Both the position numbers and the translations under genes were made by a program. Below are positions 1-35,276 of a DNA stretch of 35,276 nt, piece by piece (the first letter of the stretch is position 1; each line of letters starts with the position of its first letter). Origin of the DNA: a virus. Taxonomy: Duplodnaviria; Caudoviricetes. Location of the stretch: positions 1 through 35,276 of IMG/VR virus record IMGVR_UViG_3300011334_000418; one strand, written 5' to 3'. Below the pieces are notes generated by a model. The model was not told the origin of the DNA and did no database searches. It saw only the letters and a program-made list of their open reading frames with translations.

Positions 1-49
1 GGCAATTACACGCAAAGTGAATTGCCAAAGGGGGGGTGTTAACCCTTTG
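1..49. other. Candidate cos/packaging-proximal region with inverted repeats
   Basis: GGCAATT (1-7) / AATTGCC (20-26) and CAAAGGG / CCCTTTG inverted repeats. Lies between the HNH gene at the window end and terS, the usual cos position in HK97-like phages. Confidence 0.45.
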
Positions 50-171
50 TGTGGGTTTCAAACCCTTTTTGCGTGGGGAATTCCCGTTTGCGTAAGGGTT
101 AGCCTTTACGCCGAATACGGTTTGGGGTTAACATTCGTTCATTAACAGAAAAAAACACGAAGGCATTAACA

Positions 172-636
172 ATGAACAAACTTCCGGGCGAATTGCATTT
201 AATCAACGGTTCCAAAGGGATGAACCAAGGCGGGCTTTTGCCCGAATCGGTGCGTGGGCGTATTCCAATTGCGGAATGGATGAACAATCCGGAAGCATGG
301 GATAAAGATGCGTTTGTTACCGAAACCGCCGAATTTATGTTTGCGGTTTATGGCATTGGTTCCGAACAAGACAGGCACACCCTTGCCATGCTTGCGGATC
401 ACATTGATACATACATTGAGTGCAACAAATATATTGCGGCGCAAGGTTTGGTGGTGGAATTTAACGAAGGCAAAACACTAGGTGCAAACCCTTATGTAAC
501 CATCCGCAAACAAACCCTTTCGTTAATCTTACAGTTGATGAACGAAATGGGATTGACCGCACGAAGCCGATTTGCCAAAACCAAAGTGGAAGAAGATTCG
601 CCCGCCGCGAAATTTTTGCGTGGCGTAAAAGGTTAA
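172..636 (+). CDS. terS: Terminase small subunit (P27 family-like)
   Basis: Motifs 'ANPYVTIRKQ' and 'MNEMGLTARSR' are typical of P27-type TerS; first gene of the packaging module. Confidence 0.85.
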   Translation: MNKLPGELHLINGSKGMNQGGLLPESVRGRIPIAEWMNNPEAWDKDAFVTETAEFMFAVYGIGSEQDRHTLAMLADHIDTYIECNKYIAAQGLVVEFNEGKTLGANPYVTIRKQTLSLILQLMNEMGLTARSRFAKTKVEEDSPAAKFLRGVKG

Positions 637-639
637 CAA

Positions 640-819
640 ATGTACGGTTGTTATAACCGCGCTGAATTTAAGCGCGAAGTAATTGTGCAAGAAGGTTCAA
701 CCGATGGCAAATGGAAACAAATAACAATTCCGTTTGTTATGTCTGAAACCTGCCAATACACACTTTCCAATTTGGGCAAGGTTGATCCCAAATGCAACGG
801 TTGCAGGTGGAAACAATGA
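640..819 (+). CDS. Small Cys-containing hypothetical protein (59 aa, not in ORF track)
   Basis: Read by hand: MYGCYNRAEFKREVIVQEG...PKCNGCRWKQ*. Starts 3 nt after the terS stop and has an ATGA overlap with the next ORF. Confidence 0.65.
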   Translation: MYGCYNRAEFKREVIVQEGSTDGKWKQITIPFVMSETCQYTLSNLGKVDPKCNGCRWKQ

Positions 820-1019
820 CACAAGATAAAATTATTGAAATGGCTAGACAAGTTGCAAGACAACCTAACAGGATTTATGCGCCTGATGAAAAAGAATTTT
901 TGTATTACTTTGCCAAAATGGTAGAAAAACAAAAATTAAATGAAGTTGCCGCCGCTTGTGAACGCTTGCCGTTTGGCGATACCGCACAATCATTTGCCGT
1001 TTGGATTCGTCAACAATGA
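816..1019 (+). CDS. Hypothetical protein
   Basis: ATG at 816 (MTQDKIIEMARQ); ATGA overlaps at both ends. Confidence 0.65.
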   Translation: MTQDKIIEMARQVARQPNRIYAPDEKEFLYYFAKMVEKQKLNEVAAACERLPFGDTAQSFAVWIRQQ

Positions 1020-2683
1020 ATTGGCAAGATGGCATTGCGTATGCCCATTCGGTTGCCAAGGGCGAAATCAATGTTTGCCGCGATGTTCGGTTGGCTTGCC
1101 AACGGTTCATTAACCAATACGAAAACAAAGAATGGGAATATGTTTTTGATCCCGATTACCCGCAACACATATTGGAATTTGCCGGTGCACTAAAACATAC
1201 CAAGGGTGTATTTGCCGGGCAATCGGTGGTACTTGAACCGTTCCAAATCTTTTTCCTTTGTGCGGTTTACGGGTTTCGATTTAAGAAAGATCACAACCGC
1301 CGCATGGTTACGGATGTGATTTTGTTTATTCCCCGCAAGGCAGGTAAATCCACCCTTACGGCGGTGATCGGTTTGTACGAATTAATTTGTGGCGAACCGG
1401 GCGCGGAAGTATTTACCCTTGCAACAAACCGGGAACAAGCAACCATTGTGTTTGATGCATCCAAAGGTTTTGTGGAATCCATGCCCGGTGATGTGGGTGG
1501 GTTGTTCAATGTATCCAAATACGAAATTAAAAAGGTTGGCGATTCCCAATCCATGTTTAAGGCGTTAAGCCGGGACACCAAGAAAACGGGCGATGGAAAA
1601 AACCCTTCGTGCGTAATCATTGATGAAGCCGCGCAAATCGTGGATCGCAATTCCATTGAAGTTTTACATTCGGGTATGGTGGCGCGGGCGAACCCTTTGC
1701 GTATATACATCACAACCGCATCGTTTACAAAAGAAACCAAGTTTTACGAAGATATGGATTTGTACCGTTCCATGTTGAACGGCGAAGCAAGCGATAATCC
1801 AAGGTGGTTTGGTTTGTTGTACGGGCTTGATCCCCAAGATGATTGGAAAAACCCGGACACATGGCAAAAAGCCAATCCGATGCATGGCATAAGTGTTTTT
1901 ACCGAAGCCATTGCGGAACGGGCAATACAAGCCGAAAGCAAACCCGCAACCCTAAACGAATTTCTTTGCAAAACCTTAAATGTGTTTGTTTCCGCAAATT
2001 CGGCATGGATTGACCGCGCCCATTGGGATGATCCCGTTTGTTTAATTAAAGAACCGCGCCAACCGGAAGCGGTATTTGTTGGCTTTGACCTTGCGGCAAC
2101 GCGAGATTTGAACGCCGCTTGTTTTTTGAAAAGATTTGCTGATGACGATTACGAAACAGAATGGAAGTTCTTTTTGCCGGAAGAAGGTTTTAACCTTATT
2201 CCTAAACACTACCAAGATATATTTCGGGTTGCCGTTGATTCGGGAATCTTAAAATTAACGCCGGGCAATGTGATGGATGATCGGGAAATTTCCGATTACA
2301 TCATTACCCGGTGCGGTGAATTCCAAAATGTAAAAGAAATTGGATACGATGCGTATAACGCCGCATCCCTTGTTGCCCGCTTGCATGAAGCCGGATTGCC
2401 TGTTAAAAAGGTGGGGCAGGGTATGGCGGTTCTTAACAATCCATCCAAACAAGTTGAACGGTTAATACTTCAAAAACAAATCAAGCACGATGGCAACCCG
2501 TTTGTTGGGTGGCAATTGGGCAATTGTGAAGTTTACGAAGATGTAAACGGAAACATCAAGATTCGTAAAAATGAAGCAGATAAATCCGCAAAAGTTGATG
2601 GAATCATTGCAATGATTATTGCCATGCATTGCGCGTTGGACAATCCATCGCTTTCAAATAGTTGGGGATTTCGTGCGTTTTAA
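1016..2683 (+). CDS. terL: Terminase large subunit
   Basis: Walker A 'IPRKAGKST', Walker B 'VIIDE', nuclease motifs 'GFDLA', 'IGYDAYNA' and 'KVDGIIA'. Probable start is ATG 1016. Confidence 0.96.
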   Translation: MNWQDGIAYAHSVAKGEINVCRDVRLACQRFINQYENKEWEYVFDPDYPQHILEFAGALKHTKGVFAGQSVVLEPFQIFFLCAVYGFRFKKDHNRRMVTDVILFIPRKAGKSTLTAVIGLYELICGEPGAEVFTLATNREQATIVFDASKGFVESMPGDVGGLFNVSKYEIKKVGDSQSMFKALSRDTKKTGDGKNPSCVIIDEAAQIVDRNSIEVLHSGMVARANPLRIYITTASFTKETKFYEDMDLYRSMLNGEASDNPRWFGLLYGLDPQDDWKNPDTWQKANPMHGISVFTEAIAERAIQAESKPATLNEFLCKTLNVFVSANSAWIDRAHWDDPVCLIKEPRQPEAVFVGFDLAATRDLNAACFLKRFADDDYETEWKFFLPEEGFNLIPKHYQDIFRVAVDSGILKLTPGNVMDDREISDYIITRCGEFQNVKEIGYDAYNAASLVARLHEAGLPVKKVGQGMAVLNNPSKQVERLILQKQIKHDGNPFVGWQLGNCEVYEDVNGNIKIRKNEADKSAKVDGIIAMIIAMHCALDNPSLSNSWGFRAF

Positions 2684-2714
2684 GTTATTATTGCAATAAC
2701 TTCGGGGGTAAAAC

Positions 2715-4112
2715 ATGGGAATTTTGGACATTTTCAAGGGTAAAAAGCCGGTAACAACGGAATCAAACACCGTTCTTGGGCAAACCCAACTTGGTAACCA
2801 AGTTATTTATGGACTATCCCAACAAGGTAAAACATCCCAACAATTACTTTATGTAACCACTTCAAGCCAAACAACGGCGGGGCGGCAAGTTGATTTATCA
2901 ATGCTTACCCGTAATTCAACCATTATGGCTTGCGTGGGCGCAAAGGCAAGAACACTTGCACAATTGCCAAAAGCGGTAATGCTAAAAATGGATGATGGCA
3001 CTTTTGTTGATGCCCTTAAATCTGATTTGACAAGTGCGCGAGATAAAGCAAAAGCCAAACAAGTTTTGAATTTGCTTTATGCGCCAAACAATTTCCAAAA
3101 CGCATACGAATTTTGGTATCAATGGAGTATGTGGCAAGATTTGACCGGGGAAACATTTACCCTTTGGTGGCGCAAAGATCAAAAAGATCAAATGCAAACC
3201 CCAACGGAAATGTATAACTTGGATTCCACCCTTATTACGGTTGGTATTTCCGAAACCCGTTACCCTTATTACCGCCTTTCAACGCCTTGTTATGGTTTAA
3301 CCAAAGAACAACCGCTTGAATATTGGATGGTGATGCATACTAAAGAAGCGGCGTGGCAAGGTTCATCCGGCTTTAACAAAGGTATTCTTGCGGCTGAATT
3401 GGTGGGCTTGGATCAAGATATTGATTTGTACGCCAATTACATTATGCAAAACGGCGCAAAACCTTCCGGTATGTTTACAACCGATCAAGTGATTCCGGAT
3501 GCCAAATATAAAGAAATTGCTTCCCGCTTAAAAGAAGCATGGACAAATATGCTTGGTTCGCGTAATCAAGATTTAAGCAAGCCCGGACAAGGGATGTTGT
3601 TAGATCAAGGCATGAAATACACCGCAATTGATATGTTAACGCTTCAAGATGCCGAAGCCGCCGCATTGAAGATGCAAACCATGAAGCGTATTTGCGGTTT
3701 GTTTGGTGTTCCACCCGCAATGTTGGGTATTGGCGATTCCAAATATAACAACACCCAAACGCAATTGGATGAATTCTATAAAACAACTATGTACCCAATG
3801 GTAATCAATGTTGAACAAAAATTGAATCAACATTTGTTGCGTGGGTATCCAAACTTGGTTATTCGGTTTGATACCAAGGAATTTTTAAAAGGCGCGGTGT
3901 TGGATCAAGTTAACTTTGTTAATACTGCCGTAAACGGCGGCATAATGACACCAAACGAAGCCCGCGAATATCTGAACATGGCAAAAATGAATGACGCGGA
4001 TGAATTAAAGCAAGAACCCGCAAAAGGTGATTCCTTGCCGGGACAAAGCCCGCAGGATACCGGCGGTGGTGGTGGCAATCAGAAATTAAAAGCCAACATT
4101 GGTAAAACATGA
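2715..4112 (+). CDS. HK97-family portal protein
   Basis: 'QNGAKPSG', 'RICGLFGVPPAMLG', 'GIMTPNEARE'; follows terL. Confidence 0.95.
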   Translation: MGILDIFKGKKPVTTESNTVLGQTQLGNQVIYGLSQQGKTSQQLLYVTTSSQTTAGRQVDLSMLTRNSTIMACVGAKARTLAQLPKAVMLKMDDGTFVDALKSDLTSARDKAKAKQVLNLLYAPNNFQNAYEFWYQWSMWQDLTGETFTLWWRKDQKDQMQTPTEMYNLDSTLITVGISETRYPYYRLSTPCYGLTKEQPLEYWMVMHTKEAAWQGSSGFNKGILAAELVGLDQDIDLYANYIMQNGAKPSGMFTTDQVIPDAKYKEIASRLKEAWTNMLGSRNQDLSKPGQGMLLDQGMKYTAIDMLTLQDAEAAALKMQTMKRICGLFGVPPAMLGIGDSKYNNTQTQLDEFYKTTMYPMVINVEQKLNQHLLRGYPNLVIRFDTKEFLKGAVLDQVNFVNTAVNGGIMTPNEAREYLNMAKMNDADELKQEPAKGDSLPGQSPQDTGGGGGNQKLKANIGKT

Positions 4113-4291
4113 AAATCTTTAATAGAATAATGGCAACATTTGCTTCCCAATTAAAGAAATCAAATGTTAAACTACCAAGTAAAAGCGAAAAGCCCCACAA
4201 GATACAAGACGATAACCAATCAATTCACAATGGGGTGATACATGAAAAATTTGAACCTAGTTTGCGAAGCAAAGTTAAGCGTACCAAGTAA
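4109..4291 (+). CDS. Possible small basic hypothetical protein
   Basis: ATGA overlap with the portal stop, but overlaps the protease gene by 50 nt. Confidence 0.3.
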   Translation: MKIFNRIMATFASQLKKSNVKLPSKSEKPHKIQDDNQSIHNGVIHEKFEPSLRSKVKRTK

Positions 4292-5039
4292 CGCAAACGA
4301 AAGTGCCGCCAATCCTTCCGGGCTTATGGAAGCCCGCGTAACCACATGGGGTGCGCGTGAAGGTGCAGATGGTCGCAAGTTCAATTACCAACCCGAAGGT
4401 TTCATGGAATGGGCAACCGAATTCATGGAATCCGGCAAACCGCTTCCAATGTTTTTAAACCATAACGATATGGGTATGCCGGTTGGCGAATGGAACGAAT
4501 TTGTATTTGACAAAGAAGGCATGACCGCCAAGGGCAAATTGTTCTTGAATACAAGCGCGGGCAATGACCTTTACACCGTATTAAAAGAAAGCCCCGATTT
4601 GTTTGGCGGCGTTTCCGTTGGCGCGTATGCCGAAGAAGCGTGTTGGGTTGATACCGATGGCAACCCAATTGTTTCCGGTGATGATGATGCCGAATCATAT
4701 TTTCAAATCACCAAAGGTGGTTTGCGCGAAGTTAGCGTGGTAATGTACCCAAACAATCCCAATGCGGAAATTCACAAGTTGGAAGCCTTTGATACCGAAG
4801 GCAATGCCAATCCGCGAGTAATCGAAAAACTACTGCGTGAAGCAGGGGTTTCCCGAAAAGATGCAACCACCGCATCTTCAATCTTGAAAAAACTTTTGGC
4901 TTTGCGTGATGTGAAGCCCGAAGCAAAGCAAGAAGCCCCAATTGCGCGTGATGCGGATGCGGTGGATCAAGAAGCCGCCCAACTACTTCGTGCGTTTGAA
5001 TTGCGCGAATTAGAAAAGGCACTATCAAAACGCATTTAA
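4242..5039 (+). CDS. HK97-family prohead protease
   Basis: 'PMFLNHN...PVGEW', 'GVSVG', 'LREVSVVMYPNNPNA'; lies between portal and capsid genes. Confidence 0.93.
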   Translation: MKNLNLVCEAKLSVPSNANESAANPSGLMEARVTTWGAREGADGRKFNYQPEGFMEWATEFMESGKPLPMFLNHNDMGMPVGEWNEFVFDKEGMTAKGKLFLNTSAGNDLYTVLKESPDLFGGVSVGAYAEEACWVDTDGNPIVSGDDDAESYFQITKGGLREVSVVMYPNNPNAEIHKLEAFDTEGNANPRVIEKLLREAGVSRKDATTASSILKKLLALRDVKPEAKQEAPIARDADAVDQEAAQLLRAFELRELEKALSKRI

Positions 5040-5054
5040 AAAAGGAAATGCAAA

Positions 5055-6377
5055 ATGTCTATCGAAAAAATCATTGAAAAGGTTGATGCAATTGAAGTGG
5101 CAAACCAAGCCAAGATTGTTGAAGCCGTTGAAGCCGTAAAAGCAGAATTTGAAGAAAAGATTTCTACCCTTGAAGCCAAGGTTGCGGAAGTTAAAGCCCC
5201 TCAAATCATCCAATCACCTGCAAAAAGTGTTAAACAAGATGTGAACCGCATGGTTCGTGAACAAATCCGCGATTTCACCAAATCTTCAAAAGGTTTGGAA
5301 AAAGAAATTAAGATTTGGGAATCTGTGGATCAATACGATGCATACCTAAAAGAAGCAAGCGCATTGACCGGTTCCGGCGCGGGCGTTGGTGGTCGTGTTG
5401 CTTACGATCCCGTATTCCATGTGATGCGTTTGGCTAACCCAATGCGCGGTTTGTCGCGCAATGTGTCAACCGATGGCGCACAATACACTTTCCGCGCCAA
5501 AACAGGCAACGCGGGTGCGGCATGGGGTTATGCAATCAATAACAACGGTTCCGGCACTACTGAAAGCACAAACATTTGGCAATTGAATTTGCAAGATATT
5601 AATGTGCAATTCCCAATCCGTACCGCCGCTTTGGATGATATTGATGGTTTGGAAGCCAATGTGGTTGACGATATGCTTGTGGAATTCTCGCAAGTTGAAG
5701 GTCAATCAATGATTCAAAACAACGATCAATCCGGCACAACCACCACTTCAACAGGTGGAACAAACGGCTTGCGTGGTTTGAATTACTATCCCGGCGCAAA
5801 CAGTTCATATACAGGTGGTACAACTTCCGCTTATGCTTTTGGCACAAGTGGTACAGGTGCAACCGCCGGTTTGAATAGCATTGCAACTTACGATCAAATC
5901 ACAACAAACGGTTTTGCAAGCGCAAACAATGTTAAGTATGCGGATTTGATTAACTTCTTGCACGCTTTGCCACAACAATATTGGTCAAATGGCAACAAGT
6001 GGATGATTTCACCTTTGATGCTTGCCGGTATTCGCGGTTTGGTTGATGACAACGGCACACCTGTGTTTGAAAGAATGTCCCCATTGGTTTACGATGGCAT
6101 CGTTGGCAAGTTGCTTGGTTACGATGTTGTTGTTAACAACTATGTTGATGCGCCTACCGCTTCCGGTGGTTCCGCAGGTACTACAAGCAAGTACCCAATG
6201 TATTTTGGTGATTTCACACGCGGACACACAATCGTTGATCGTTTGAATATGGTATTGCGCCGTTACGATCAAACCGCACCGGGCTTTATCACTTTCTACG
6301 GTGAAAAACGCCTTTGTGCATCGAATGTCGATCCTGCCGCAATCATCCGTTACCGTTCAACCGCAACGGGCGCGTAA
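5055..6377 (+). CDS. Major capsid protein, HK97 fold, with N-terminal coiled-coil delta domain
   Basis: About 100 aa charged helical N-terminus; 'GKLLGYDVVVN', 'MYFGDF', 'ITFYGEKR'; strong RBS AAAGGAAA. Confidence 0.93.
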   Translation: MSIEKIIEKVDAIEVANQAKIVEAVEAVKAEFEEKISTLEAKVAEVKAPQIIQSPAKSVKQDVNRMVREQIRDFTKSSKGLEKEIKIWESVDQYDAYLKEASALTGSGAGVGGRVAYDPVFHVMRLANPMRGLSRNVSTDGAQYTFRAKTGNAGAAWGYAINNNGSGTTESTNIWQLNLQDINVQFPIRTAALDDIDGLEANVVDDMLVEFSQVEGQSMIQNNDQSGTTTTSTGGTNGLRGLNYYPGANSSYTGGTTSAYAFGTSGTGATAGLNSIATYDQITTNGFASANNVKYADLINFLHALPQQYWSNGNKWMISPLMLAGIRGLVDDNGTPVFERMSPLVYDGIVGKLLGYDVVVNNYVDAPTASGGSAGTTSKYPMYFGDFTRGHTIVDRLNMVLRRYDQTAPGFITFYGEKRLCASNVDPAAIIRYRSTATGA

Positions 6378-6392
6378 TAGCAACAAAGGAAT

Positions 6393-6415
6393 GGGGGGCT
6401 TACGCCCCCCTTCTT
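6393..6415 (+). terminator. GC hairpin / weak intrinsic terminator between the two capsid genes
   Basis: GGGGGGC-TTAC-GCCCCCC followed by TTCTT. Confidence 0.6.
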
Positions 6416-6449
6416 GAATGAATATTGAAGGCATAAAGGAAAAAAGCAA

Positions 6450-7691
6450 ATGAAAAATACCGCCATTCTTAACGGCATCAAGGAAGCACTAACCAACGGG
6501 GAAGCAACCGTTAACCTGCGCGAAGCAAGTTCCCTTACGGGTTCGGGGCTTGATGCGGGTGGTCGCGTAATTTACGATGATGCGTTTGCTTCTTTGCGTT
6601 ATGCCAACCCAATTCGTATGGGGGCGCGACAAATTGCAACCGATGGTTCGGCACAAGCGTTTGTTGCAAAAACAGGTAATGCAACATTGGTTCAAGATAT
6701 TGCCGTTGTAACCGGCGCAATTTCAACAACCACACTTACAGTTTCCGCAGTAACTTCCGGCACATTGCGTGTTGGTCAATACATTACCGGTACAGGTGTA
6801 ACCGCCGGTACAACAATTACCGCACTTGGTACAGGTACGGGCGGTACAGGCACTTACACCGTAAGCGCAAGCCAAACCGCTTCTTCCACTACCATTACCG
6901 CGCAATCAAACCCTTGGGGTTATGCCATCAACAACAATGGCGGTTCACCCGATATTGCAACAACTTTTTGGCAATTGCCGGTGCGCGATATTAACGCAAG
7001 CCTTCCAATTCGTACCGCAGTTCTTTCCGATATTGATTCATTGGAAGAAGCGGTTGCGGGCGATTTGCTTTTGGAATTGTCGCAACAAGAAGGTTTGTCG
7101 ATGGTTCTTAACAATGACCAATCCGCAAGCACAACTTACGCTTATGGCGCAACAAGTGGTTTGCGTGGTTTAAATTCATACCCCGGTTCCACAAGCGCGG
7201 CGGCATTTGGTTCAAACGGTTCCGCAATCACCAACGGGCGGCATACTGTGTTGCAAGTTGAATTGGCAACCGCAACCGCCGTTGTATATGATGATTTGGC
7301 AAACTTGCAAGCGGCTTTACCGGCGCAATATCTTTACAAGCCAACAACCGCATGGATGATGCATCCAACGACAATCCAAGCGTTGCGTAAATTGAAGGCA
7401 TCCACAAGCGCAAACAACTTCTTGGAAGTTGGTGATGATGATGGCGGCGCGGTGGTTTACATTTTTGGGCATCGCGTAATTCCAAACCCATATATGCAAG
7501 TTGCGGCATCGGGCGCGTTCCCGGTTTACCTTGCAGAATGGGAACGCTTCGTAACCATTGCGGATTACGGCGTAATTGACATTAAGCGATTCGATCAAAG
7601 CGCACCGGGCTTCGTAACCCTGTTTGCTGAAAAGCGCGTTTGCAGTTCCATCCTTGATGTTTTTGCGGGTGTTCGTTTAGTCGGCGCATAA
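6450..7691 (+). CDS. Second HK97-fold capsid protein paralog with inserted Thr/Gly-rich domain
   Basis: Collinear with 5055-6377 (EASx[39 protein letters not shown]); short N-terminus; insertion at 6684-6914. Confidence 0.9.
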
Positions 7692-7702
7692 GGGGCTAAA
7701 TT

Positions 7703-8380
7703 ATGGCGGTTGAAAATATGACACTTGCCCCGTACTATTCGGGGACAAGAAATCCGTTCAATTATGAAAAGGTTGAACAAATTAACCGCGATATTTCAAC
7801 CGGTTGGTTAACGCTTGATGAAATAACGCAACAACTTAACTTGTTCCAAGACGAATCGCAAGATGCGTATTTGGAAAGCCTTGAATTGGCAACCCGCATG
7901 GCAATCGAAGATTTCCTTGGGTTCGCCATCTTTTCAACGCAATACCGTTGTTACTATGGCGATCCGGGTTTAAACGGTTCATCAATTTATTTGGATTTGC
8001 CGGAAGTTGCAACCACATACCAAGGGCAAACCCCGGCGGTAACCATCAATTCGGTGGAATATTGGACAGGCACAACCGGCGCAACCAAAAACCTTTTGGC
8101 GGTTGGCAACTACTATTACGATCCAACGGGTAACCGCGTGGTTGTACCAAGTGGATTACCAAGCCCATTGGCACAAAACATTGCCAACCCGGTGCAAGTT
8201 ACTTACACCATCAACCAATCTTTTGCGGCGCAATATCCCGTTGTAAAACAAGCGGGCTTGATGTTGCTTACCCATTTGTATAACAGTCGTTCAACGGTTG
8301 GTGATTCGGTGCAAATGAAAGCCGAAATACCGTTTGGCGTAACCATGTTGTTGCGCCCTTACAAACCTTTGGTGATGTAA
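7703..8380 (+). CDS. Head-tail connector (HK97 gp6-like)
   Basis: 'VKQAGLMLLTHLYNSR', 'IPFGVTMLLRPYK'; position after the capsid genes. Confidence 0.85.
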   Translation: MAVENMTLAPYYSGTRNPFNYEKVEQINRDISTGWLTLDEITQQLNLFQDESQDAYLESLELATRMAIEDFLGFAIFSTQYRCYYGDPGLNGSSIYLDLPEVATTYQGQTPAVTINSVEYWTGTTGATKNLLAVGNYYYDPTGNRVVVPSGLPSPLAQNIANPVQVTYTINQSFAAQYPVVKQAGLMLLTHLYNSRSTVGDSVQMKAEIPFGVTMLLRPYKPLVM

Positions 8381-8724
8381 TGACAATTAAGCGTTACGAA
8401 AATGTGGTGGTTAAAACCGTTACAAACGGCGTGGATAGCCTTGGCGAATACACAACCACCATTACAACTTGGTTTGAAACACGCGCTTTGGTAAGCGATG
8501 TGGCAAATTCCTTGCGTATTTCGGAACGATACCGCGTATATTCGGATTTAACGAATTTCACAATGAATTACACGCCAAACACAAAAACAATTGTGGATAA
8601 CCAAGACAATTATTCGTTTTTTTGGCGTGGCAAAGATTGGCGTATTACCGATTGTCGGGAAACCAATGATCGGCAGTTTGTTACCTTTCTTTGTTATCGT
8701 AACGATCCATCAACACCGGTATAA
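8380..8724 (+). CDS. Head closure / head-tail adaptor
   Basis: Size, position and 'FFWRGKDWRI' beta-strand pattern. Confidence 0.7.
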   Translation: MTIKRYENVVVKTVTNGVDSLGEYTTTITTWFETRALVSDVANSLRISERYRVYSDLTNFTMNYTPNTKTIVDNQDNYSFFWRGKDWRITDCRETNDRQFVTFLCYRNDPSTPV

Positions 8725-8727
8725 GAA

Positions 8728-9144
8728 ATGGCGAACCAAAACAATCCCGTTGATTACGCCGAAGCCATCCAATATGAATTGGTGGATACGGTTTCGCCCG
8801 TACCGGTTTATGCAAGTTTCAACCGGAATTATTCAAAAGAACCAAAATTTTTAACTTGGATGTTGCGTAATATTCATCAACCGGTTTACACCGGGCAAAC
8901 GCAATCCAACAAAGGCATTGATCGCCCGATATTTCAAGTGCATATTTATGCACAATCAATGTCGGATGCTTTCAATTTAAGCAACACCATATTACAATCG
9001 TTACATGGTTATTCGGGTCAATTTGGCGGCATTGGTGGCTTTTTTGTTGCCAAGGTTGATATAAGTTGGCTTTACAATACATACGACAATGAATTGGGGT
9101 TAAACCAAATTGTTTTGGATTGCACCTTGGACATTCCAACATGA
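8728..9144 (+). CDS. Tail terminator / tail completion protein
   Basis: 'FQVHIYAQS...ILQSLHGYSG'; immediately upstream of the tail tube gene. Confidence 0.7.
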   Translation: MANQNNPVDYAEAIQYELVDTVSPVPVYASFNRNYSKEPKFLTWMLRNIHQPVYTGQTQSNKGIDRPIFQVHIYAQSMSDAFNLSNTILQSLHGYSGQFGGIGGFFVAKVDISWLYNTYDNELGLNQIVLDCTLDIPT

Positions 9145-9182
9145 CAAGATTTTTTTTAACACTTTCAAAAAGGAAATGAAAA

Positions 9183-9701
9183 ATGGCACTTATTAACAAA
9201 GTCTTGCCGGGTTATGTTGCAACCCTTTGGTGTCAAGATGACCCAACCCCCACCCCATTGACAGATACGCAATTGGGTACATGGGCGCAAACAGAAACCA
9301 TTATTGGCACAAGTGCAGGTGGTACAGGTACGGCAGGTATTCAAGTTCCGGTTGAAGCCATCCCCGCATTTGGTTCCGATGATGCAAGCGCGGCTTATTC
9401 TGCCGCCGGTTTGCGTACCGGTTACAAAATCACAACCCAAAACCAAGTAACTTCACTTACGATTACTTCGGCTTGGAATCCTGCCGATCCCGCGCAATTG
9501 CTTATTCGTGATGATGGCGATTCCGGTTCAATCATTCGCACTTATGTGATTGCGGTTTACGATGGTACTAATACCGTTGCTTACGCTTTCAATGGTCGCG
9601 TTGGTGGTATGCAATGGGATATGTCACCAAGTGCCGAAGGTAAATTTACTTTCACAATCCACCCGGTAGGCGGCAATTCTTACGGTTGGTCAAACAGTTA
9701 A
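9183..9701 (+). CDS. Major tail (tube) protein
   Basis: Position, strong RBS, 172 aa beta-rich Thr/Gly protein, 'YAFNGRV'. Confidence 0.75.
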   Translation: MALINKVLPGYVATLWCQDDPTPTPLTDTQLGTWAQTETIIGTSAGGTGTAGIQVPVEAIPAFGSDDASAAYSAAGLRTGYKITTQNQVTSLTITSAWNPADPAQLLIRDDGDSGSIIRTYVIAVYDGTNTVAYAFNGRVGGMQWDMSPSAEGKFTFTIHPVGGNSYGWSNS

Positions 9702-9722
9702 CAAAACCGAAAACAACAAAAC

Positions 9723-9959
9723 ATGACAACACTAGATAACACAAAAAACAATTCGGAAGCGTTACTTAACTTCTTGATTACCCAAGCCAATTCCGGTTCA
9801 AAGAATTGGTTTGGGTTTCACGAACAACGCATTGCCGGAATTCATACCGCATACAAGATTGCGGAAAATCATGCCGACAAATTAACCCCCGATGAAGTTG
9901 CGGATTACGCTTTGCGCCTTAATAACGCAATCTTCCGTAAATTGGTAAAAGGGGAATAA
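9723..9959 (+). CDS. Hypothetical protein
   Basis: ORF tightly packed between the tail tube and chaperone genes. Confidence 0.65.
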   Translation: MTTLDNTKNNSEALLNFLITQANSGSKNWFGFHEQRIAGIHTAYKIAENHADKLTPDEVADYALRLNNAIFRKLVKGE

Positions 9960-9960
9960 C

Positions 9961-10479: not shown

Positions 10480-10838
10480 GGCGTAGCCTTCGCCGCCAAG
10501 TTGTTGCCGCAATGGTGTTCAACGGGCATACAGAACAATACATTGATTCAATTGATGAAGAATTATTTGGGGATATTCAAGTTATGTATGCCGAAGGGAT
10601 GCTTGGAAACAAAGCCATATTCGATGCATTAGCACCGATCACAACCGCCGTTTTCAATTATTTACGCCCCGAAGGTGCGCCCGCCAATAAAGTTGATTCA
10701 ATATTTAAATGGATTAACGAATATTTCAAAAATCCCGACAACGAACCCGCCGAAGCCGATATGGTTAATTCGGCATTGTTAACTTATGTATCCCGCGCAA
10801 AAGGGTACAAAAAGGACAAATTTAAAAATGTCGGTTAA
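10476..10838 (+). CDS. Tail assembly chaperone frameshift extension (gpT-like)
   Basis: -1 frame continuation; first ATG at 10512 has no clear RBS. Confidence 0.72.
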   Translation, partial: LRRSLRRQVVAAMVFNGHTEQYIDSIDEELFGDIQVMYAEGMLGNKAIFDALAPITTAVFNYLRPEGAPANKVDSIFKWINEYFKNPDNEPAEADMVNSALLTYVSRAKGYKKDKFKNVG

Positions 10839-26548: not shown

Positions 26549-26710
26549 GTCAAAAAAACGGTATTTAACGAAAAATATTGGAAATGCGATCAAACCAATA
26601 ACCAAAGCAAAAGCCAAATAAAGCAAGACAAGCATAAGTTGCAAAGCGGCGATTAGCAATCCGATTCCATACGCCAACGCGCTTGTAAAAAATTGGGCGA
26701 TTGATACCAT
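26543..26710 (-). CDS. Small hydrophobic membrane protein (55 aa, not in ORF track)
   Basis: MVSIAQFFTSALAYGIGLLIAALQLMLVLLYLAFALVIGLIAFPIFFVKYRFFDK*; RBS AAAGGAAC. Confidence 0.65.
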   Translation of the reverse strand: MVSIAQFFTSALAYGIGLLIAALQLMLVLLYLAFALVIGLIAFPIFFVKYRFFDK

Positions 26711-26734
26711 TTTGTTGTTCCTTTTTAAATTTAA

Positions 26735-26947
26735 TCATTCCATATATCCTTTTGTGGTTACGGTTACTTTTTCAACATCCACTTTGCCACACCAATACGA
26801 ATCGGCTTGCGCCCAATCCAATGCGGCTTTACGGCTTTTGAAAAGCATGGTTCGGTATGGTGAATATTGCAAAACACCGGGCGGCAACTTTACATACGCC
26901 CCCCGGCGGCTTTTAATAACCAAAGCCCAACAATCAAGCCTTGCCAT
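26735..26947 (-). CDS. Hypothetical protein
   Basis: Probable start MARLDCW at 26947; packed within the operon. Confidence 0.55.
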   Translation of the reverse strand: MARLDCWALVIKSRRGAYVKLPPGVLQYSPYRTMLFKSRKAALDWAQADSYWCGKVDVEKVTVTTKGYME

Positions 26948-27152
26948 TACCAAACCATTTTTCAAACAAACCCGGCTTGGTTCCCTGTAATGCCCGGCTT
27001 GTTTCTTCGCGGATAACTTCACATTCCAACAATATTTGCGTGGCAAGGGCGTGGACTTCTTCGGCTTTTGTACCATCCGCACTTATGCGTTGCAACTTAT
27101 TGTTAAGGTTGTTAACGGCAACCAATGATGATGCCAAGTTGATTTCACCCAT
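26934..27152 (-). CDS. Hypothetical protein
   Basis: Probable start MGEINL at 27152, after RBS AAGGGG. Confidence 0.6.
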   Translation of the reverse strand: MGEINLASSLVAVNNLNNKLQRISADGTKAEEVHALATQILLECEVIREETSRALQGTKPGLFEKWFGNGKA

Positions 27153-27168
27153 AATTAAAATTACCCCT

Positions 27169-27585
27169 TTAAAACGGAATATCATCATCAAGCCCTTCCA
27201 TTGCCGAAGGTGCTGGCGCGGGTGAACGGCGTTGGAATTGTTCATGCGGTGCGGCTTCGCGTTGTTCTTTGCGTTCGCCAATCAATTGCACATTGTCAAT
27301 GCGGGCGCGTAAATCAAAGCCGGGTGAACCATCCTTTTTGGCAAATGTTTCAATGTGTAAATCTGCAAGTTGCACAAAGATTTGTGCGCCTTTGTGAAGA
27401 TACGGTTGCAGTTTTTCGCCGCGTTCACCCCACAAACTTGCCTTTACCCATTGGGTCGGCATATTGCCATCTTGCCCTTTGCGCCCGTATGAATAAGCCA
27501 AGGACAAATCCAACACCGCTTTACCATCTTGGGTGTACCGAACAACCGCTTCGTTTCCTATTCGTGCAATTCCAACTGTTAACAT
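27169..27585 (-). CDS. ssb: Single-stranded DNA-binding protein
   Basis: OB-fold pattern 'VRYTQDGKAV', 'TQWVKASLWGERGEKL'; acidic tail 'DDDIPF'. Confidence 0.93.
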   Translation of the reverse strand: MLTVGIARIGNEAVVRYTQDGKAVLDLSLAYSYGRKGQDGNMPTQWVKASLWGERGEKLQPYLHKGAQIFVQLADLHIETFAKKDGSPGFDLRARIDNVQLIGERKEQREAAPHEQFQRRSPAPAPSAMEGLDDDIPF

Positions 27586-27586
27586 A

Positions 27587-28246
27587 TTATTCCCCTGTGG
27601 TTAAGATTTCAAACATTGCATCAATTTCTTGCAAGAAGCCAATTGCGGCGGCTTCAACATCCGCAAGGTAAACCGGATCGGGTACATACTTGCGAATCAA
27701 CAATTTGTTTTTGTCCGGCAAACGCGGATCGTAAGCACAAAAATAAACAGGGCAACCACCCAAACACGCGCTTTGCAATGCCATTTGCGGCAAGTAATCT
27801 TCGGGCAACCAATTAGGATCGCGGGCGGCAATTAACCATGAAAGCATGGTTGATGTTGATGGGCATTTAATTTCAAGAAGGGCAACTTCCGATTCAAGAA
27901 TTCCATCCGGGGATGCCCCGCAATTTTCAATACTTGGATGTTCAACAAAGCCAACATCGGTTACTTGCATACCGGTGGCAAGCGTAAACGCTTCTTTTGC
28001 CATTGGTTCTTGGTCAATACCCCATTGCATTTCTTGGGTTACATACTTGGGAACAATGTTCCCTGTAAGGCGTTCCGCAAGGATTTCGATTTTTAATTTG
28101 CGGCGTTCGGATGATTCTTTTGGTAATTCATCCTTCTTTGCCTTTAAAAATGACATTGCCGCCGCCATGCGTGATGCGGTCAATTTACCGGTGCGGGCAT
28201 TAAACCAAGCCCCGGTTCCCTGTAATGCGTTTGCTTCGCGTGTCAT
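27587..28246 (-). CDS. YqaJ-like / lambda-type exonuclease
   Basis: 'WFNARTGKLTAS', 'MQWGIDQEP', 'GASPDG', 'LEIKCP', 'YDPR'. Confidence 0.92.
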   Translation of the reverse strand: MTREANALQGTGAWFNARTGKLTASRMAAAMSFLKAKKDELPKESSERRKLKIEILAERLTGNIVPKYVTQEMQWGIDQEPMAKEAFTLATGMQVTDVGFVEHPSIENCGASPDGILESEVALLEIKCPSTSTMLSWLIAARDPNWLPEDYLPQMALQSACLGGCPVYFCAYDPRLPDKNKLLIRKYVPDPVYLADVEAAAIGFLQEIDAMFEILTTGE

Positions 28247-28443
28247 ATATTTTTTCCTTCCACAATATCGGATGCATTGCCTTTTTTGGCGTTTATGTTG
28301 CCGTAAATAATTACGGTTTCGCGTATGGTTTTGGCTTCGTTATGCCGGGTTTTCCAATAAATTCGTTCATCACCTTCCGTATCCCGGTATTTTGCGGTTA
28401 ACCAATCAATACGATCATCAATGGCTTTTAATATTTCAATCAT
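28243..28443 (-). CDS. Hypothetical protein
   Basis: Probable start MIEILK; ATGA overlap with the exonuclease gene. Confidence 0.55.
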   Translation of the reverse strand: MIEILKAIDDRIDWLTAKYRDTEGDERIYWKTRHNEAKTIRETVIIYGNINAKKGNASDIVEGKNI

Positions 28444-28465
28444 GGTTATTTCTTTGTTAATAAGG

Positions 28466-29137
28466 TTATGGATTTGGCGTTTTCTCACTTGGCGTACCCT
28501 TTTGTTCGGCAAGCAATACGGCTTTCACTTCATCTTTTGCGGCGGTGGCGGCTTTTTGTTCTTCTTTGGTCAAACCGCCCCATTCCACTTGCAGGTTTAC
28601 AAGTGATTTACAGGCGCGAAGGATTTTTTCCACTTCGGCGATGCGTTCGGGTGAAGGCGTAACCGTAACTTCCCCGGCAGGGGGTGAAATCGTGGCGGTA
28701 ACGCTTCCATCTTTGGCAGTTGATACGCTTACCCTAGCGGAACGCGATTGCGCGTTTACGGGCGTTCTTTGCGCGGCATTGGCATCATCATCTTCCGGGG
28801 CAATACCGCAAGCCGCCATTAACGAATAACGGCGGGCGTAAGTTAACGCGGAACCGTACCCCTGCGGATCATGTTTGGCGGCGGGAACATGAAGGATGCC
28901 CCCGGTGATGGTTTCCCCGGATTCGTGAACAAACAGGGTTTCCACCGCAACGCCGTTATCCGAATCGTGGGTTCGTTGGATCATGGCAATGCCATTGGCG
29001 TTAAGGGCATCAATCACCGCTTCAACACAAGCGGCAAGGTCGGCATAACGCGAACGGAAATGTGGGTTTGTTGATGTTTTCAACGCGGGCGCAAAATCGC
29101 GTTGGGCTTTCACAAGTGCGGTTGCAATTTGTTGCAT
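28466..29137 (-). CDS. erf: ERF-family single-strand annealing protein
   Basis: 'NPHFRSRYADL', 'HESGE', 'QGYGSALTYARRYSL', 'EDDDAN'. Start ATG 29137. Confidence 0.93.
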   Translation of the reverse strand: MQQIATALVKAQRDFAPALKTSTNPHFRSRYADLAACVEAVIDALNANGIAMIQRTHDSDNGVAVETLFVHESGETITGGILHVPAAKHDPQGYGSALTYARRYSLMAACGIAPEDDDANAAQRTPVNAQSRSARVSVSTAKDGSVTATISPPAGEVTVTPSPERIAEVEKILRACKSLVNLQVEWGGLTKEEQKAATAAKDEVKAVLLAEQKGTPSEKTPNP

Positions 29138-29141
29138 GGTT

Positions 29142-29357
29142 TTATTCCTTTCCGGCAATGTGTTCGTGTGTGAACAAAAGCGAATTAATTTGGTTTTGGA
29201 TTTCAGTTGCGGCGCGTTGCAAAATAAACAAAACATCCGGCGCAAACAGTTGTTCCGTTTGGGCTTCGTGCATCAATGCCCGGAATTTGTTGTTCCATGC
29301 ATCAATTGGTTGTTCAATCGGGGGTTCAATTGTTTCAATGGTGGTTTGGTCGTTCAT
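29142..29357 (-). CDS. Hypothetical protein
   Basis: Start MNDQTT with RBS AAAGGT. Confidence 0.6.
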   Translation of the reverse strand: MNDQTTIETIEPPIEQPIDAWNNKFRALMHEAQTEQLFAPDVLFILQRAATEIQNQINSLLFTHEHIAGKE

Positions 29358-29368
29358 GGTTTTACCTT

Positions 29369-29542
29369 TCAAAGAAAACAAAGAAGAAACAAGCAAGCAA
29401 CAAACAATGCGCTTACAAGGATTTTTTCGCCAAGTGTTTCTTCTTGGATGATCGGGGTACGCGCCGATACTTCGCGGATCATTCTTTGTTTTTCTTCGTG
29501 CGCGTAATCGCGTTGCACAAGGTTTTGATATTGGTTTTTCAT
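29369..29542 (-). CDS. Small protein with C-terminal TM segment (57 aa, not in ORF track)
   Basis: MKNQYQNLVQ...ILVSALFVACLFLLCFL*; RBS AAGGAA; ATGA overlap. Confidence 0.6.
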   Translation of the reverse strand: MKNQYQNLVQRDYAHEEKQRMIREVSARTPIIQEETLGEKILVSALFVACLFLLCFL

Positions 29543-29775
29543 TTTGTGATTTCCTTTATTGTGATTTCGTATAAACGCCCGTTAATGTCGGACACATTGA
29601 TAAACTTGGCGGTGGATGCAAACGCGCCTTTGGTGTCGGTGTCGTAACGCACCCCGCCGCAACCGGCAATCAATGATTCATGCCGCCCAACATCTTTGTT
29701 AATGGCTTGCTTAATAACTTCCGCGATGTAATCGCAATACACCAATGGCACATGGATCGTTTTAAGCGGTAACAT
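29539..29775 (-). CDS. Hypothetical protein
   Basis: Probable start MLPLKT. Confidence 0.55.
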   Translation of the reverse strand: MLPLKTIHVPLVYCDYIAEVIKQAINKDVGRHESLIAGCGGVRYDTDTKGAFASTAKFINVSDINGRLYEITIKEITK

Positions 29776-29944
29776 TTTTTTCGATCCTTTCCAACTTAAC
29801 AACGGCGTAACCTTTGCGTTCAAATTCCAACGCGGCGTGGCAAGCCTGTTTAATTGTTAATGGAAGGGTGCGGATTGGTTCACTTTCCGCATCGTATTGG
29901 CGTACAACGGTGTATTCCTTTTTGCCTTGCCCAATTCGTTTCAT
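29762..29944 (-). CDS. Hypothetical protein
   Basis: RBS AAGGAAA upstream. Confidence 0.6.
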   Translation of the reverse strand: MKRIGQGKKEYTVVRQYDAESEPIRTLPLTIKQACHAALEFERKGYAVVKLERIEKNVTA

Positions 29945-30023
29945 ATATTGTTTCCTTATGTTTTATCGTATGTGTTAACAGTATCACCGGGTGATCCACC
30001 AAGGGGCTTGCGCCCCCCGGCGT

Positions 30024-30557
30024 TTACTTGCGAAGCCTTGTTGGGAATTGGTTAAACACTTTGCCATGTACGGAACGGTTAACAATGCATTTAGTGTTCC
30101 ACACTTCTTTGGCATCACCCTTTGTTACAACCAAATCAGAATCAAACCATACGCCGCCGTTAAAGCCCATTTTGGCGGCATCACATTCGCCCACTTTTTT
30201 AATCAACTTGCAAACATACGCTTCGTATTGAAATGCGGCATCATCTGCGGCGTTTTTGATAGCGCGGGCAACGCCTTCTTCGCACCAAGTAACCAACAAA
30301 GGTTCACTTGGGCGGCGTGAACATTTAACAGGGGATACAAGTGAACGGGCGTAATCATGGGCGGCTTTTAACGCCATGTATGTTGCGCGTGATGCATTGA
30401 TGCCGGGGCGGGGAAATGCAACATTCAAATCCCAATCTGCGGCTTCCAATTTGGCTTTGATGTTTGCAACAACTTCGTGTGTTGCTTCAACTGCGGCATC
30501 AATGCTTGCTTGCTTGATGGGTTGAACGGCGATTGCGATGGCGTTTTGTTGTGTCAT
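30024..30557 (-). CDS. Hypothetical early protein (first gene of the leftward operon)
   Basis: Start MTQQNA with RBS AAAGGAAA; followed by a GGGGC-GCAA-GCCCC hairpin. Confidence 0.75.
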   Translation of the reverse strand: MTQQNAIAIAVQPIKQASIDAAVEATHEVVANIKAKLEAADWDLNVAFPRPGINASRATYMALKAAHDYARSLVSPVKCSRRPSEPLLVTWCEEGVARAIKNAADDAAFQYEAYVCKLIKKVGECDAAKMGFNGGVWFDSDLVVTKGDAKEVWNTKCIVNRSVHGKVFNQFPTRLRK

Positions 30558-30607
30558 GTTAAGTTTCCTTTTTTTCATCCGGTCATGGAATGTTTGACCG
30601 TGAAAGA

Positions 30608-31521: not shown

Positions 31522-31701
31522 ATGGAAAACAAAGATCAAGCGTATTTATCGGAAACATTTGTAAATTGTTTTGCAATGCCAAATTGTTCTAAATGCAAAC
31601 ACTTTGAATTGTTAACCGTATTTGAATATTGCAACTTACACGACAAGATAACGGAAGGAAACATTTGCAATGGGTTCCGTATTAAAGATGCAGATGCATA
31701 A
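31522..31701 (+). CDS. Small Cys-rich protein
   Basis: CSKCKH...C...C; RBS AAAGGGG. Confidence 0.55.
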   Translation: MENKDQAYLSETFVNCFAMPNCSKCKHFELLTVFEYCNLHDKITEGNICNGFRIKDADA

Positions 31702-32098
31702 CCCGCATTACCGTAATGAAGAATTGATACGAAGCAGTTTCAACATTCTTACCGGGATAAAGTTTGGCAACATTCGCCCAATGGATGTTGATGGTTTCAT
31801 TGAAATCCATAACAAACTTTTTATCTTCATTGAAACCAAGCATGGCATAAGCCCATTGCAAGGCGCACAAAAAATGGCGTTGGAAAGGTTAAGTGATGCG
31901 GTACACAATCCACCCGATAAACATTCATACCTTCTTGTTGCAAGCCATGAAGCCCAAGGCGATATTGATGTTGCAACTTCGTTGATTACTGAATACAGGC
32001 ACAACGGAAAATGGCATTGGGTTGCGGAATTGGAATACACCGCTTATGATTTTGTTTACAATCTAATTGAAATCCACATTGGGCATAACAAAATATGA
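31688..32098 (+). CDS. PD-(D/E)XK nuclease-like protein
   Basis: 'PMDVDGFIE...FIFIETK...Q' catalytic pattern. Confidence 0.6.
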   Translation: MQMHNPHYRNEELIRSSFNILTGIKFGNIRPMDVDGFIEIHNKLFIFIETKHGISPLQGAQKMALERLSDAVHNPPDKHSYLLVASHEAQGDIDVATSLITEYRHNGKWHWVAELEYTAYDFVYNLIEIHIGHNKI

Positions 32099-33920: not shown

Positions 33921-33944
33921 ACACAACAACAAAGGAAACAAAAC

Positions 33945-34163
33945 ATGACATTGAAACAACAAATCCTTGATTTACTAACCGCCCAACCCGGATTGGATAG
34001 CAACCAAATAACGGAAGCGTTAAACGCCAAGGTTACAAGCGTTAAGGTTACTTTATGCAAATTGGCAGGTGCGGAAAAGATTACCCGTATTAAAGAATTA
34101 AAGAACAATCCCGATAAAGCCGGGCGCAAAAATACTTATCGTTACAAAGTTAAAACGGATTAA
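33945..34163 (+). CDS. Winged helix-turn-helix protein
   Basis: 'QILDLL...GLDSNQITEAL...SVKVTLCKL...KITR...YRY'; RBS AAAGGAAA. Confidence 0.7.
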   Translation: MTLKQQILDLLTAQPGLDSNQITEALNAKVTSVKVTLCKLAGAEKITRIKELKNNPDKAGRKNTYRYKVKTD

Positions 34164-34196
34164 ACTGTTAACACCGGGAACAATGAAGGGATTAAT

Positions 34197-34556
34197 ATGA
34201 ATCACGATGCAATGAAAAACTTTTTGGGCGCGTTAATGTGTGGGCAAATTTGTTTACGCTTAATCCATTGGAACACCAAGGTTTACGCCGAACATAAAGC
34301 CATTGGCAAACTGTACGATCAATTGGCAGATTTGACCGATACCCTTGCCGAAACATACATGGGCATTTACGGAAGGTTTGGCAACATCCCCTGTACGCAT
34401 GGCGATCTTTCCGATGGCATTACTTATTGTGCGGAATTGGCTGATTACATTCAATCCATCCGTACCGAATTACCAAACGATACCCAATTGCAAAACATTG
34501 TTGATGAAATCGCCGCAACCGTTGATCGCACCAATTATTTGTTAACACTTGAATAA
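34197..34556 (+). CDS. Ferritin/Dps-like four-helix protein (DUF5856-like)
   Basis: 'IHWNT..YAEHKAIGKLYD...DTLAE.YMG.YGR', 'LQNIVDEI...YLLTL'. Confidence 0.7.
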   Translation: MNHDAMKNFLGALMCGQICLRLIHWNTKVYAEHKAIGKLYDQLADLTDTLAETYMGIYGRFGNIPCTHGDLSDGITYCAELADYIQSIRTELPNDTQLQNIVDEIAATVDRTNYLLTLE

Positions 34557-34557
34557 G

Positions 34558-34788
34558 ATGGATTGCAAACATTGTTGGCACGAAACCGGGTTTGTGCTAA
34601 CGAGTAACCCCCCGCAATATCCGGAAGTGTGTTGCCATTGCGGGGAACAACGGGTTATATACGGATCACCCGCACAAGAACAAGAAGGGCATGGTAAGTA
34701 CCTGCCGATACAAAGGGTGGTAAGCCTTCCCCTTTACGATTACGACACACTACCCCGATCCAATGCCAACCGTACCGAAACAGACTAA
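34558..34788 (+). CDS. Small Zn-finger-like protein
   Basis: 'CKHCW...TSNPPQY...CCHCG'. Confidence 0.6.
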   Translation: MDCKHCWHETGFVLTSNPPQYPEVCCHCGEQRVIYGSPAQEQEGHGKYLPIQRVVSLPLYDYDTLPRSNANRTETD

Positions 34789-35218
34789 GTGCGCGTACCT
34801 TGGGTGTGGTAACGAACGATCCCACCTTAATACATATTGCATGGAACATGGGGGTAAAGGGTTTAACGATAGTGCCAAGCGTAAACAATCAAACGCCATG
34901 TATCAAACGGCACTATGGGGTCGCACCCGTTTACGCCAATTAAGCACACAACCGTTATGCCAAGCGTGTGCGGGCATGAATAAGGTAACCGCCGCATCCG
35001 AAGTGGATCACCTGTTTGCATGGCAACACATAGGGGTTGAAGCCTTTTACCAAAATGTATTTCAATCCCTTTGCAAGAATTGCCACACCAACAAGGGCGC
35101 ATTGGAACGCCAAGGGATATACCGGCATTACGCCCACACGCCCATTGATTACGGAATAAAAGATTACGCAAGGGTATGCCATGCCCATGCAATCGCATCG
35201 CCTTCAATCGCGTTTTAA
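34763..35218 (+). CDS. Terminase-associated HNH endonuclease (HK97 gp74-like)
   Basis: 'QPLCQAC...EVDH...FQSLCKNCHTNK'; upstream of terS on circularisation. Confidence 0.88.
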   Translation: MPTVPKQTKCAYLGCGNERSHLNTYCMEHGGKGFNDSAKRKQSNAMYQTALWGRTRLRQLSTQPLCQACAGMNKVTAASEVDHLFAWQHIGVEAFYQNVFQSLCKNCHTNKGALERQGIYRHYAHTPIDYGIKDYARVCHAHAIASPSIAF

Positions 35219-35276
35219 TTCGCGCAAAACGGAAAATTTTTTTAGAAACTTAAACATTTACCCCTTTTACGGAAAG

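Follow-up and report, generated by a model that had tools for sequence, protein, structure and literature searches.

Near-total loss of the trinucleotide GAG from a freshwater phage genome and strand polarity in some of its partly purged relatives

Restriction-site avoidance is well known for palindromes of 4-6 bases. In virulent phages it has been described for type II sites, as set out in the part of the survey used here (PMC6286503). Depletion on one strand only is, in the part used of another study (bioRxiv 10.64898/2026.09.23.753747), the mark of type III systems and of MANTIS; both methylate a single strand, and their restriction is best at inverted pairs of sites. Two further systems read short words. 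The motif of DarTG, in the portion of PMC5179494 used here, is short and has a central A:T pair, as GAG/CTC does, and VchI reads the identical three-base motif in double-stranded DNA (bioRxiv 10.1101/2025.05.22.655678). Here we describe the near-total loss of the trinucleotide GAG and its complement CTC from the window, which is the whole of IMG/VR record IMGVR_UViG_3300011334_000418 (35,276 nt, completeness 94%), a phage genome.

The window resembles the known cases in part. With type II avoidance, as far as that survey was used (PMC6286503), it shares hard zeros for GGCC, AGCT, ACGT and for hexamer and gapped palindromes in a phage that lacks a methyltransferase; it differs in that an asymmetric three-base word is purged in every context. 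With type III (T7/EcoP15I) and MANTIS avoidance, again from the parts used of the sources, it shares an asymmetric word with a central adenine, genome-strand polarity in some relatives and avoidance of CAACAG, whereas the sites of those systems have 5-6 bases. The MANTIS study, in the part used, corrects for the trinucleotide frequencies of each phage (bioRxiv 10.64898/2026.09.23.753747), and a triplet purge is therefore normalised away there.

Loss of GAG and CTC across the window

The + strand of the window holds 17 GAG and 6 CTC, a total of 23 against about 955 expected from base composition (observed-to-expected ratio, O/E, 0.024); against a dinucleotide Markov model the O/E is 0.084. About 98% of the expected sites are missing, on both strands. 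A preliminary description made by reading the sequence had spoken of about two dozen sites, which agrees with the exact count. The positions that it quoted (418, 2103, 3125, 4816 and 5200) were exact, except that the site placed at 32904 is the CTC at 32902. The residual sites are the following.

418, 2103, 3040, 3125, 4816, 10133, 11151, 11521, 13881, 16339, 19973, 20038, 20482, 21263, 25316, 25424, 34602; + strand; residual GAG
5200, 5687, 14842, 22408, 28484, 32902; - strand; residual GAG (CTC on the + strand)

The purge is soft, in that these 23 sites are tolerated, and it extends to every flanking class. Glutamate is encoded by GAA 560 times and by GAG 4 times, and the upstream regions carry AAGGAA and AAGGGG while AGGAG is absent; both the codon preference and the ribosome-binding sites had been read correctly at the outset. 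Likewise, the words AGCT, GGCC, GAGC/GCTC and, on the + strand, CCAG, which had gone unseen, all number zero, and those called very rare are so (CTGG 2, CAGC 1, with GCTG at 8). Nearby triplets are partly depleted (O/E 0.13 for TAG, 0.22 for GAC and 0.26 for CAG); AAG, GAA and GAT stand at 0.97-1.23 and AA/TT at 1.46.

We compared these counts with codon shuffles of 56 open reading frames (ORFs), some with approximate starts. Out-of-frame sense GAG was seen 8 and 5 times in the two frames against 56 and 43 in the shuffles, and sense CTC 4 and 1 times against 44 and 109. In the 2,168 bases of non-coding DNA there was 1 GAG/CTC against 55. The initial claim that the purge affects both strands and non-coding DNA, beyond codon bias, thus holds in all frames, and frame-0 codon usage fails to explain it, as out-of-frame, antisense and non-coding sites are all depleted. 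Nor is the purge typical of the candidate host chromosome: the GAG O/E was 0.57-0.63 in four of four 20-kb stretches from two metagenome-assembled genomes (MAGs) of the candidate family, which may not be that of the true host, and 0.44-0.90 in 12 Burkholderiaceae loci of 3 kb. When 70 other avoided motifs were forbidden in the null, 684 GAG/CTC were still expected in 34 genes where 19 were seen, so that GAG is a signal separate from the other avoided motifs.

Mutation bias through cytosine deamination, codon bias, avoidance of Shine-Dalgarno sequences or avoidance of CRISPR protospacer adjacent motifs (PAMs) might also lower a triplet count. A mutational origin would suit the alignments, in which GAG faces mainly GAA and AAG in the relatives, and would suit the excess of AA/TT. 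However, the sense sites of the form xGA-Gxx, at which both G's are non-synonymous, number 8 against 56, and since these are lost too, C-to-T mutation cannot yield the purge. Sense CTC is depleted as strongly as sense GAG. AAG, ATG and TTC, which are common CRISPR PAMs, stand at 1.15-1.23. We find this group of explanations barely credible.

The purge is not an assembly artefact: the first 12,000 bases of the window (1-12,000) recur without any difference in contigs from runs X1 and X8 (possibly the source), relatives about 5% diverged from the window are present in runs X13 and X17, and independent relatives from IMG/VR are purged in the same way.

Recurrence of the purge and strand polarity in relatives

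The closest cultured match of the terminase is that of Methylophilaceae phage P19250A, the runner-up being at 34%.

1016-2683; + strand; terminase large subunit, 71% identity to the P19250A homologue

The purge recurs in several branches of the P19250A-like family and in unrelated cultured phages. Among 80 terminase loci, the GAG O/E spans 0.02 to 0.87. On a quick tree of 75 terminase rows, with purged taken as a GAG O/E below 0.25 (19 rows), the purged label needs at least 4 changes, against a mean of 17.1 for shuffled labels, and the 8-row clade of the window is purged throughout. In 8 of 8 purged groups the loss extended to all flanking classes between -3 and +3. The leftover sites turn over fast: between the window and a relative at 10.8% divergence (G408), 40% of GAG sites are common to both, as compared with 47-79% for eight other triplets.

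In cultured phages the GAG O/E was 0.02 for PA73, 0.01 for RcTitan, 0.02 for Kharn, 0.02 for Guyu, 0.06 for Pfeifenkraut and 0.37 for phiAxp-1; five of the six PA73-family genomes tested lay at 0.01-0.06. The last four phages named are a sample out of 60 listed relatives. PA73, RcTitan and their kin are like the window in their near-total GAG purge and similar hexamer zeros, and differ from it in phage family and hosts, in a partial loss of GATC and in showing no strand polarity. PA73-family phages, which infect alpha- and gammaproteobacteria, retain GGCC, AGCT, ACGT and GAC, and therefore GAG is a target of its own. In PA73 itself (L238), GGAGT makes up 18 of the 28 leftover sites, and these 18 probably serve in ribosome binding. 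Numerous bipartite pairs of a type I-like form have no copy in this phage (CGAN6TCG, for example, 0 against 86).

These comparisons bear on the possibility that GAG has no mechanism centred on it and is lost where many unrelated restriction sites overlap (MnlI-type GAGG, GAGCTC, CTCGAG, CTNAG, type I half-sites). Patchy flanks within the clade would fit, with GAGC at about 0, GAGNC at 0.01 and GAGT at 0.33-0.45 in G001 and G003; GAGG is moreover a listed site (22 rows), and the genome avoids dozens of catalogued sites. Yet all 16 NGAGN contexts are reduced to 0-5 sites each in the window, and PA73-family phages purge the type I-like bipartite pairs and keep the half-sites while losing GAG fully. 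We hold overlap to be quite unlikely as the cause.

Strand polarity of the leftover sites was assessed across two blocks of genes, which in the window are arranged as follows.

172-26475; + strand; packaging, head, tail, fibre and lysis genes
26700-30600; - strand; opposite-strand block (single-stranded DNA-binding protein, SSB; YqaJ-type exonuclease; ERF), with one residual site; the same block of the relatives is the polarity test region

Genes on both strands were present in 35 of the 46 sequences left after removal of near-copies: 12 with an O/E below 0.3, 13 in the middle range and 10 unpurged. In the 12 purged sequences, the two gene blocks each had top-strand CTC at about 0.10 of the expected level; for top-strand GAG the values were 0.23 and 0.17. 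The corresponding CTC/GAG polarity index was -1.96 log2, the next among 32 pairs being -0.46; it was -0.55 in the middle group and -0.26 in the unpurged one. For opposite-strand genes verified by homology, top-strand GAG/CTC was 52/44 in 17 purged sequences versus 169/279 in 21 less purged ones (Fisher p=0.004, kinship ignored). In the opposite-strand block, the control ratios GAA/TTC and AAG/CTT fell below 1 in seven of seven genomes, and GAG/CTC stayed above 1 in four of the seven (G001 10/5, G003 9/5, G410 14/4, G411 21/6). Leftover GAGs in some partly purged relatives thus follow the genome strand, not gene direction. A one-strand leftover pattern is as expected for a hemimethylating, orientation-sensitive restriction of the type III or MANTIS kind. 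In another relative, G002, one capsid gene (L242-L243) holds 8 of the 20 top-strand CTC of that genome and is perhaps a recent import.

The clade also purges words on one strand only, namely GCCAG, ACAGG, AGCCT, GAACT, GGAC and CACAG, the last being a listed type III site. One-strand loss of GCCAG, ACAGG, AGCCT, GAACT, GCCAC and GGAC was seen in G001, G002 and G003 (L240-L245), in which the words purged from one strand are candidate type III specificities of the host. CAACAG, the MANTIS site in the part used of bioRxiv 10.64898/2026.09.23.753747, occurs once in the window against 15.5 expected, and CAACAC 37 times.

A DarT-like toxin of a new C-T-C specificity, modifying single-stranded DNA at the phage fork so that the longer-exposed strand is purged first, would produce a graded loss on both strands together with genome-strand polarity, and would act on the same central A:T pair; DarT modifies thymidine in single-stranded DNA, according to the part of PMC5179494 used here. 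The motif published there is TNTC, and in the window TNTC is not purged except as TCTC (TTTC 1.20, TATC 0.55, TGTC 0.46). We found no report of a CTC motif, and the one-strand 5-mers and CAACAG indicate systems of the methylation type. A toxin of this kind appears improbable to us.

Proposed host enzymes that read a G-A-G core, and the type II-like layer

The reading we favour, at a probability of about 0.5, is selection by host enzymes that read a G-A-G core, through hemimethylating and orientation-sensitive restriction. Such restriction enzymes would recognise the core around its single adenine. Self DNA would be marked on one strand, the predicted mark being G-m6A-G (m6A, N6-methyladenine), and cutting would be best when sites face each other, as in type III systems and MANTIS. 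For a phage without a methyltransferase of its own, the first sites to go would be those of the cheaper strand (CTC on the main coding strand), followed by nearly all remaining GAG sites. The agent could be one three-base enzyme or a family whose specificities span 4-6 bases and share the G-A-G core.

GAG/CTC is an asymmetric, adenine-containing word, as type III and MANTIS sites are. In the methylome motif table of PMC4752239, the methylated A lay within GAG in 24 of the first 30 of 68 GAG matches, and 14 of these 24 were type III/IIG, one of them the 4-base GGAG. One-strand depletion marks type III and MANTIS systems, and a G-m6A-G core is frequent in type III/IIG motifs; we therefore take an activity that hemimethylates, senses orientation and has a GAG core to be the most likely. 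The preliminary description had proposed strong selection from a host defence. Host selection is supported, given that frame-0 codon usage and host-like composition both fail; the part of the proposal that invoked DarT is not supported for the published TNTC motif.

Several observations weigh against this reading. In the opposite-strand block, three of the seven genomes have too few GAG/CTC or lean in the opposite direction: polarity is not seen in G002 (3/4) or G004 (1/3), and the window has 0/1, too few to show any. The relatives in the polarity tests are not independent, owing to shared kinship. PA73-family phages lack polarity, and phiAxp-1 tracks gene direction (168/312 and 65/31). Among 19 sequences with a partial purge, inverted GAG pairs showed no deficit at spacings of up to 1 kb, and longer GAG contexts exclusive to one strand did not exceed controls; both a spacing rule for GAG pairs and such contexts were set aside. 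A 2018 REBASE list of 6,672 rows (PMC6286503), which did contain the control sites, has no match for GAG, GAGC, CCAG, CAGC, GACG or CACGG, so that GAG itself has no catalogued site there. In the part of that survey used here, sites of type I and IIG were not avoided and type III sites only a little, one-strand avoidance included (PMC6286503). No CRISPR spacer against bases 1-17,700 (the left half) was found in 401 Burkholderiaceae genomes; of the 13 genomes with weak matches, one held a related phage region and the other 12 matched outside arrays. Neither a cognate enzyme nor the host was found. Finally, the table of PMC4752239 has more text matches for CAG (109) than for GAG (68), yet CAG is purged far less (0.26), and so a plain motif pool fails to explain why GAG is the word lost.

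A type IV "double jeopardy" addresses this last point: GAG methylated in the previous host would then become the target of a winged-helix nuclease, for example VchI, that is specific for G(m6A)G, which would make GAG costly both unmethylated and methylated, unlike CAG, and would account for the loss of GAG over CAG. VchI (winged helix + HNH) binds G6mAG in double-stranded DNA and needs both G's (bioRxiv 10.1101/2025.05.22.655678), and winged-helix fusion nucleases cleave m6A DNA, partly hemimethylated, in the portion of the source used. VchI nevertheless differs, in that it reads methylated GAG, did not cleave in vitro, and has been given no anti-phage role or link to phage composition (bioRxiv 10.1101/2025.05.22.655678). 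VchI-like readers, sought through the DpnI winged helix only, were not found in the candidate host family: the model (PF17726) matched one of 301 Burkholderiaceae genomes, a plain DpnI, and 103 of 104 homologues were DpnI-like, none being annotated as an HNH fusion. Plasmids yielded no such reader either. The phage, moreover, has no methyltransferase to mark all its own GAGs. We regard the type IV explanation as unlikely.

A bolder form of the favoured reading is tentative: an undescribed, widespread proteobacterial defence that reads only GAG and senses orientation may have led phages of alpha-, beta- and gammaproteobacteria that are unrelated to one another to change codons, ribosome-binding sites and spacers so that the word disappears, and the leftovers might also predict CCAG, CAGC, GACG and CACGG as uncatalogued specificities.

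Besides GAG, the window lacks or nearly lacks many words that earlier inspection had overlooked: ACGT 0, GGNCC 1 against 120, CTNAG 1, CASTG 0, CACGG 1 and GGCGGA 0, and 48 of the 64 palindromic hexamers are absent. Also at or near zero are GAATGC, RGCGCY, GGYRCC, RCATGY, GAAN4TTC, CCAN6TGG and GCCN5GGC. The remaining hard-zero words (GGCC, AGCT, ACGT, GGNCC and so on) are known enzyme sites. Catalogued palindromic sites are near zero beyond subword expectation. CASTG, GGCGGA and GAATGC are listed as sites in PMC6286503. The hard zeros for GGCC, AGCT, ACGT, GGNCC and palindromic hexamers are the ordinary, already known avoidance of type II sites. The phage avoids restriction sites as a generalist, and no methyltransferase can be recognised in it. 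GANTC is not avoided in the window (GAATC at 0.99), and a GAGN6CTC pattern was found in none of five records. GATC, GTAC and CCGG had first been called abundant; CCGG is enriched 2.75-fold, but GATC (0.70) and GTAC (0.86) are merely present. GATC, GTAC, CATG, GCGC and CGCG are retained, yet the four palindromic 6-base extensions of each are all at zero; ACCGGT and TCCGGA are retained. The type II-like words vary by lineage, CCAG being purged in the subclade of the window and at 0.86-1.10 in G001-G003. Across L001-L080 and L085-L237, zero 4-mer sets are specific to branches (for example CGCG+GCGC+GGCC, GATC+CCGG, or GTAC) and offer a possible barcode for host assignment from methylomes.

The absence of a phage methyltransferase, noted from the start, was confirmed in the window by PHROGs (0 of 57 ORFs) and by a catalytic-motif scan. 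Methyltransferase carriage as an alternative to purging was considered and dropped: motif-scan candidates, present in 11 of 72 sequences, followed no clear trend, and G004 and L147, both purged, each carry one. The host is probably a betaproteobacterium, given the P19250A terminase, the two loci that a terminase search of GTDB returned at 72-74% (a Burkholderiaceae MAG and a Rhodoferax MAG, neither in the window clade) and the occurrence of the window DNA in riverine and lake metagenomes. SSB homologues gave no host assignment.

Gene content, relatives and significance

The window is a near-complete, P19250A-related freshwater siphophage of the HK97 type. The P19250A-like synteny is present (terminase, portal, protease, capsid, tail), and PHROGs recognised terminase, portal, protease, capsid, tape measure, holin, endolysin, SSB, exonuclease, ERF, RusA and HNH among the 57 ORFs. 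Three further genes were considered for a role in the purge.

15305-15739; + strand; GNAT-fold gene of the tail module
31694-32098; + strand; small nuclease, predicted PD-(D/E)XK / VRR-NUC-like
34763-35218; + strand; HNH endonuclease adjoining the terminase, found in purged and unpurged relatives

If the phage's own nuclease cut host DNA at GAG, the phage would be spared by lacking the site. The predicted PD-(D/E)XK nuclease, about 80% conserved in the clade, was the candidate. However, its homologues lie in loci with a GAG O/E of 0.91-1.05, and the purged G004, PA73 and RcTitan yielded none; as they fail to track the purge, the gene was rejected as the GAG cutter. HNH and GNAT genes are also present in unpurged relatives, the GNAT gene in P19250A, and were likewise rejected, the former for any role in the purge and the latter as a Mom-like modifier. 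A GAG-cutting phage nuclease is very improbable. The product of the 31694-32098 gene (134 aa) has a PD-(D/E)XK-like motif and belongs to no Pfam or PHROG family; it has 775 relatives (E<=0.001), the nearest Atlas clusters being viral and unnamed but for one VRR-NUC, and the phage also carries RusA.

Two capsid-like genes stand in tandem on the + strand (5055-6377 and 6450-7691), the second with a tail-fibre-like insert at residues ~79-152. Two small ORFs between the terminase genes (640-1015, 376 bases) are skipped in the X13 and X17 relatives, and this variable insert is as GAG-free as the remainder of the window. A DUF5856 / Dps-like gene lies at 34197-34556 (+ strand) and is also present in G001, G004 and G005. 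No tRNA gene was found in the window, and PADLOC gave no match for 17 small ORFs. A related phage region (L082, G006:C2:13776-35437) lies within a 229-kb Burkholderiaceae MAG contig, and some members of the P19250A-like family may therefore integrate.

We found no report of a GAG purge in the open-access literature. We regard it as a variant of restriction-site avoidance, in which the type II layer is known and the repeated origins, the polarity in some partly purged relatives and the link to VchI are new. Scans that correct for trinucleotide frequencies delete the signal of a triplet purge by design. From the avoided words, enzyme specificities that would be new can be predicted, and the cultured purged phages that grow on harmless hosts (RcTitan, Kharn) make the defence directly findable. 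That an asymmetric triplet is cut to 2%, and repeatedly so among phages not related to each other, indicates a host defence that is strong and common and has yet to be matched to an enzyme.

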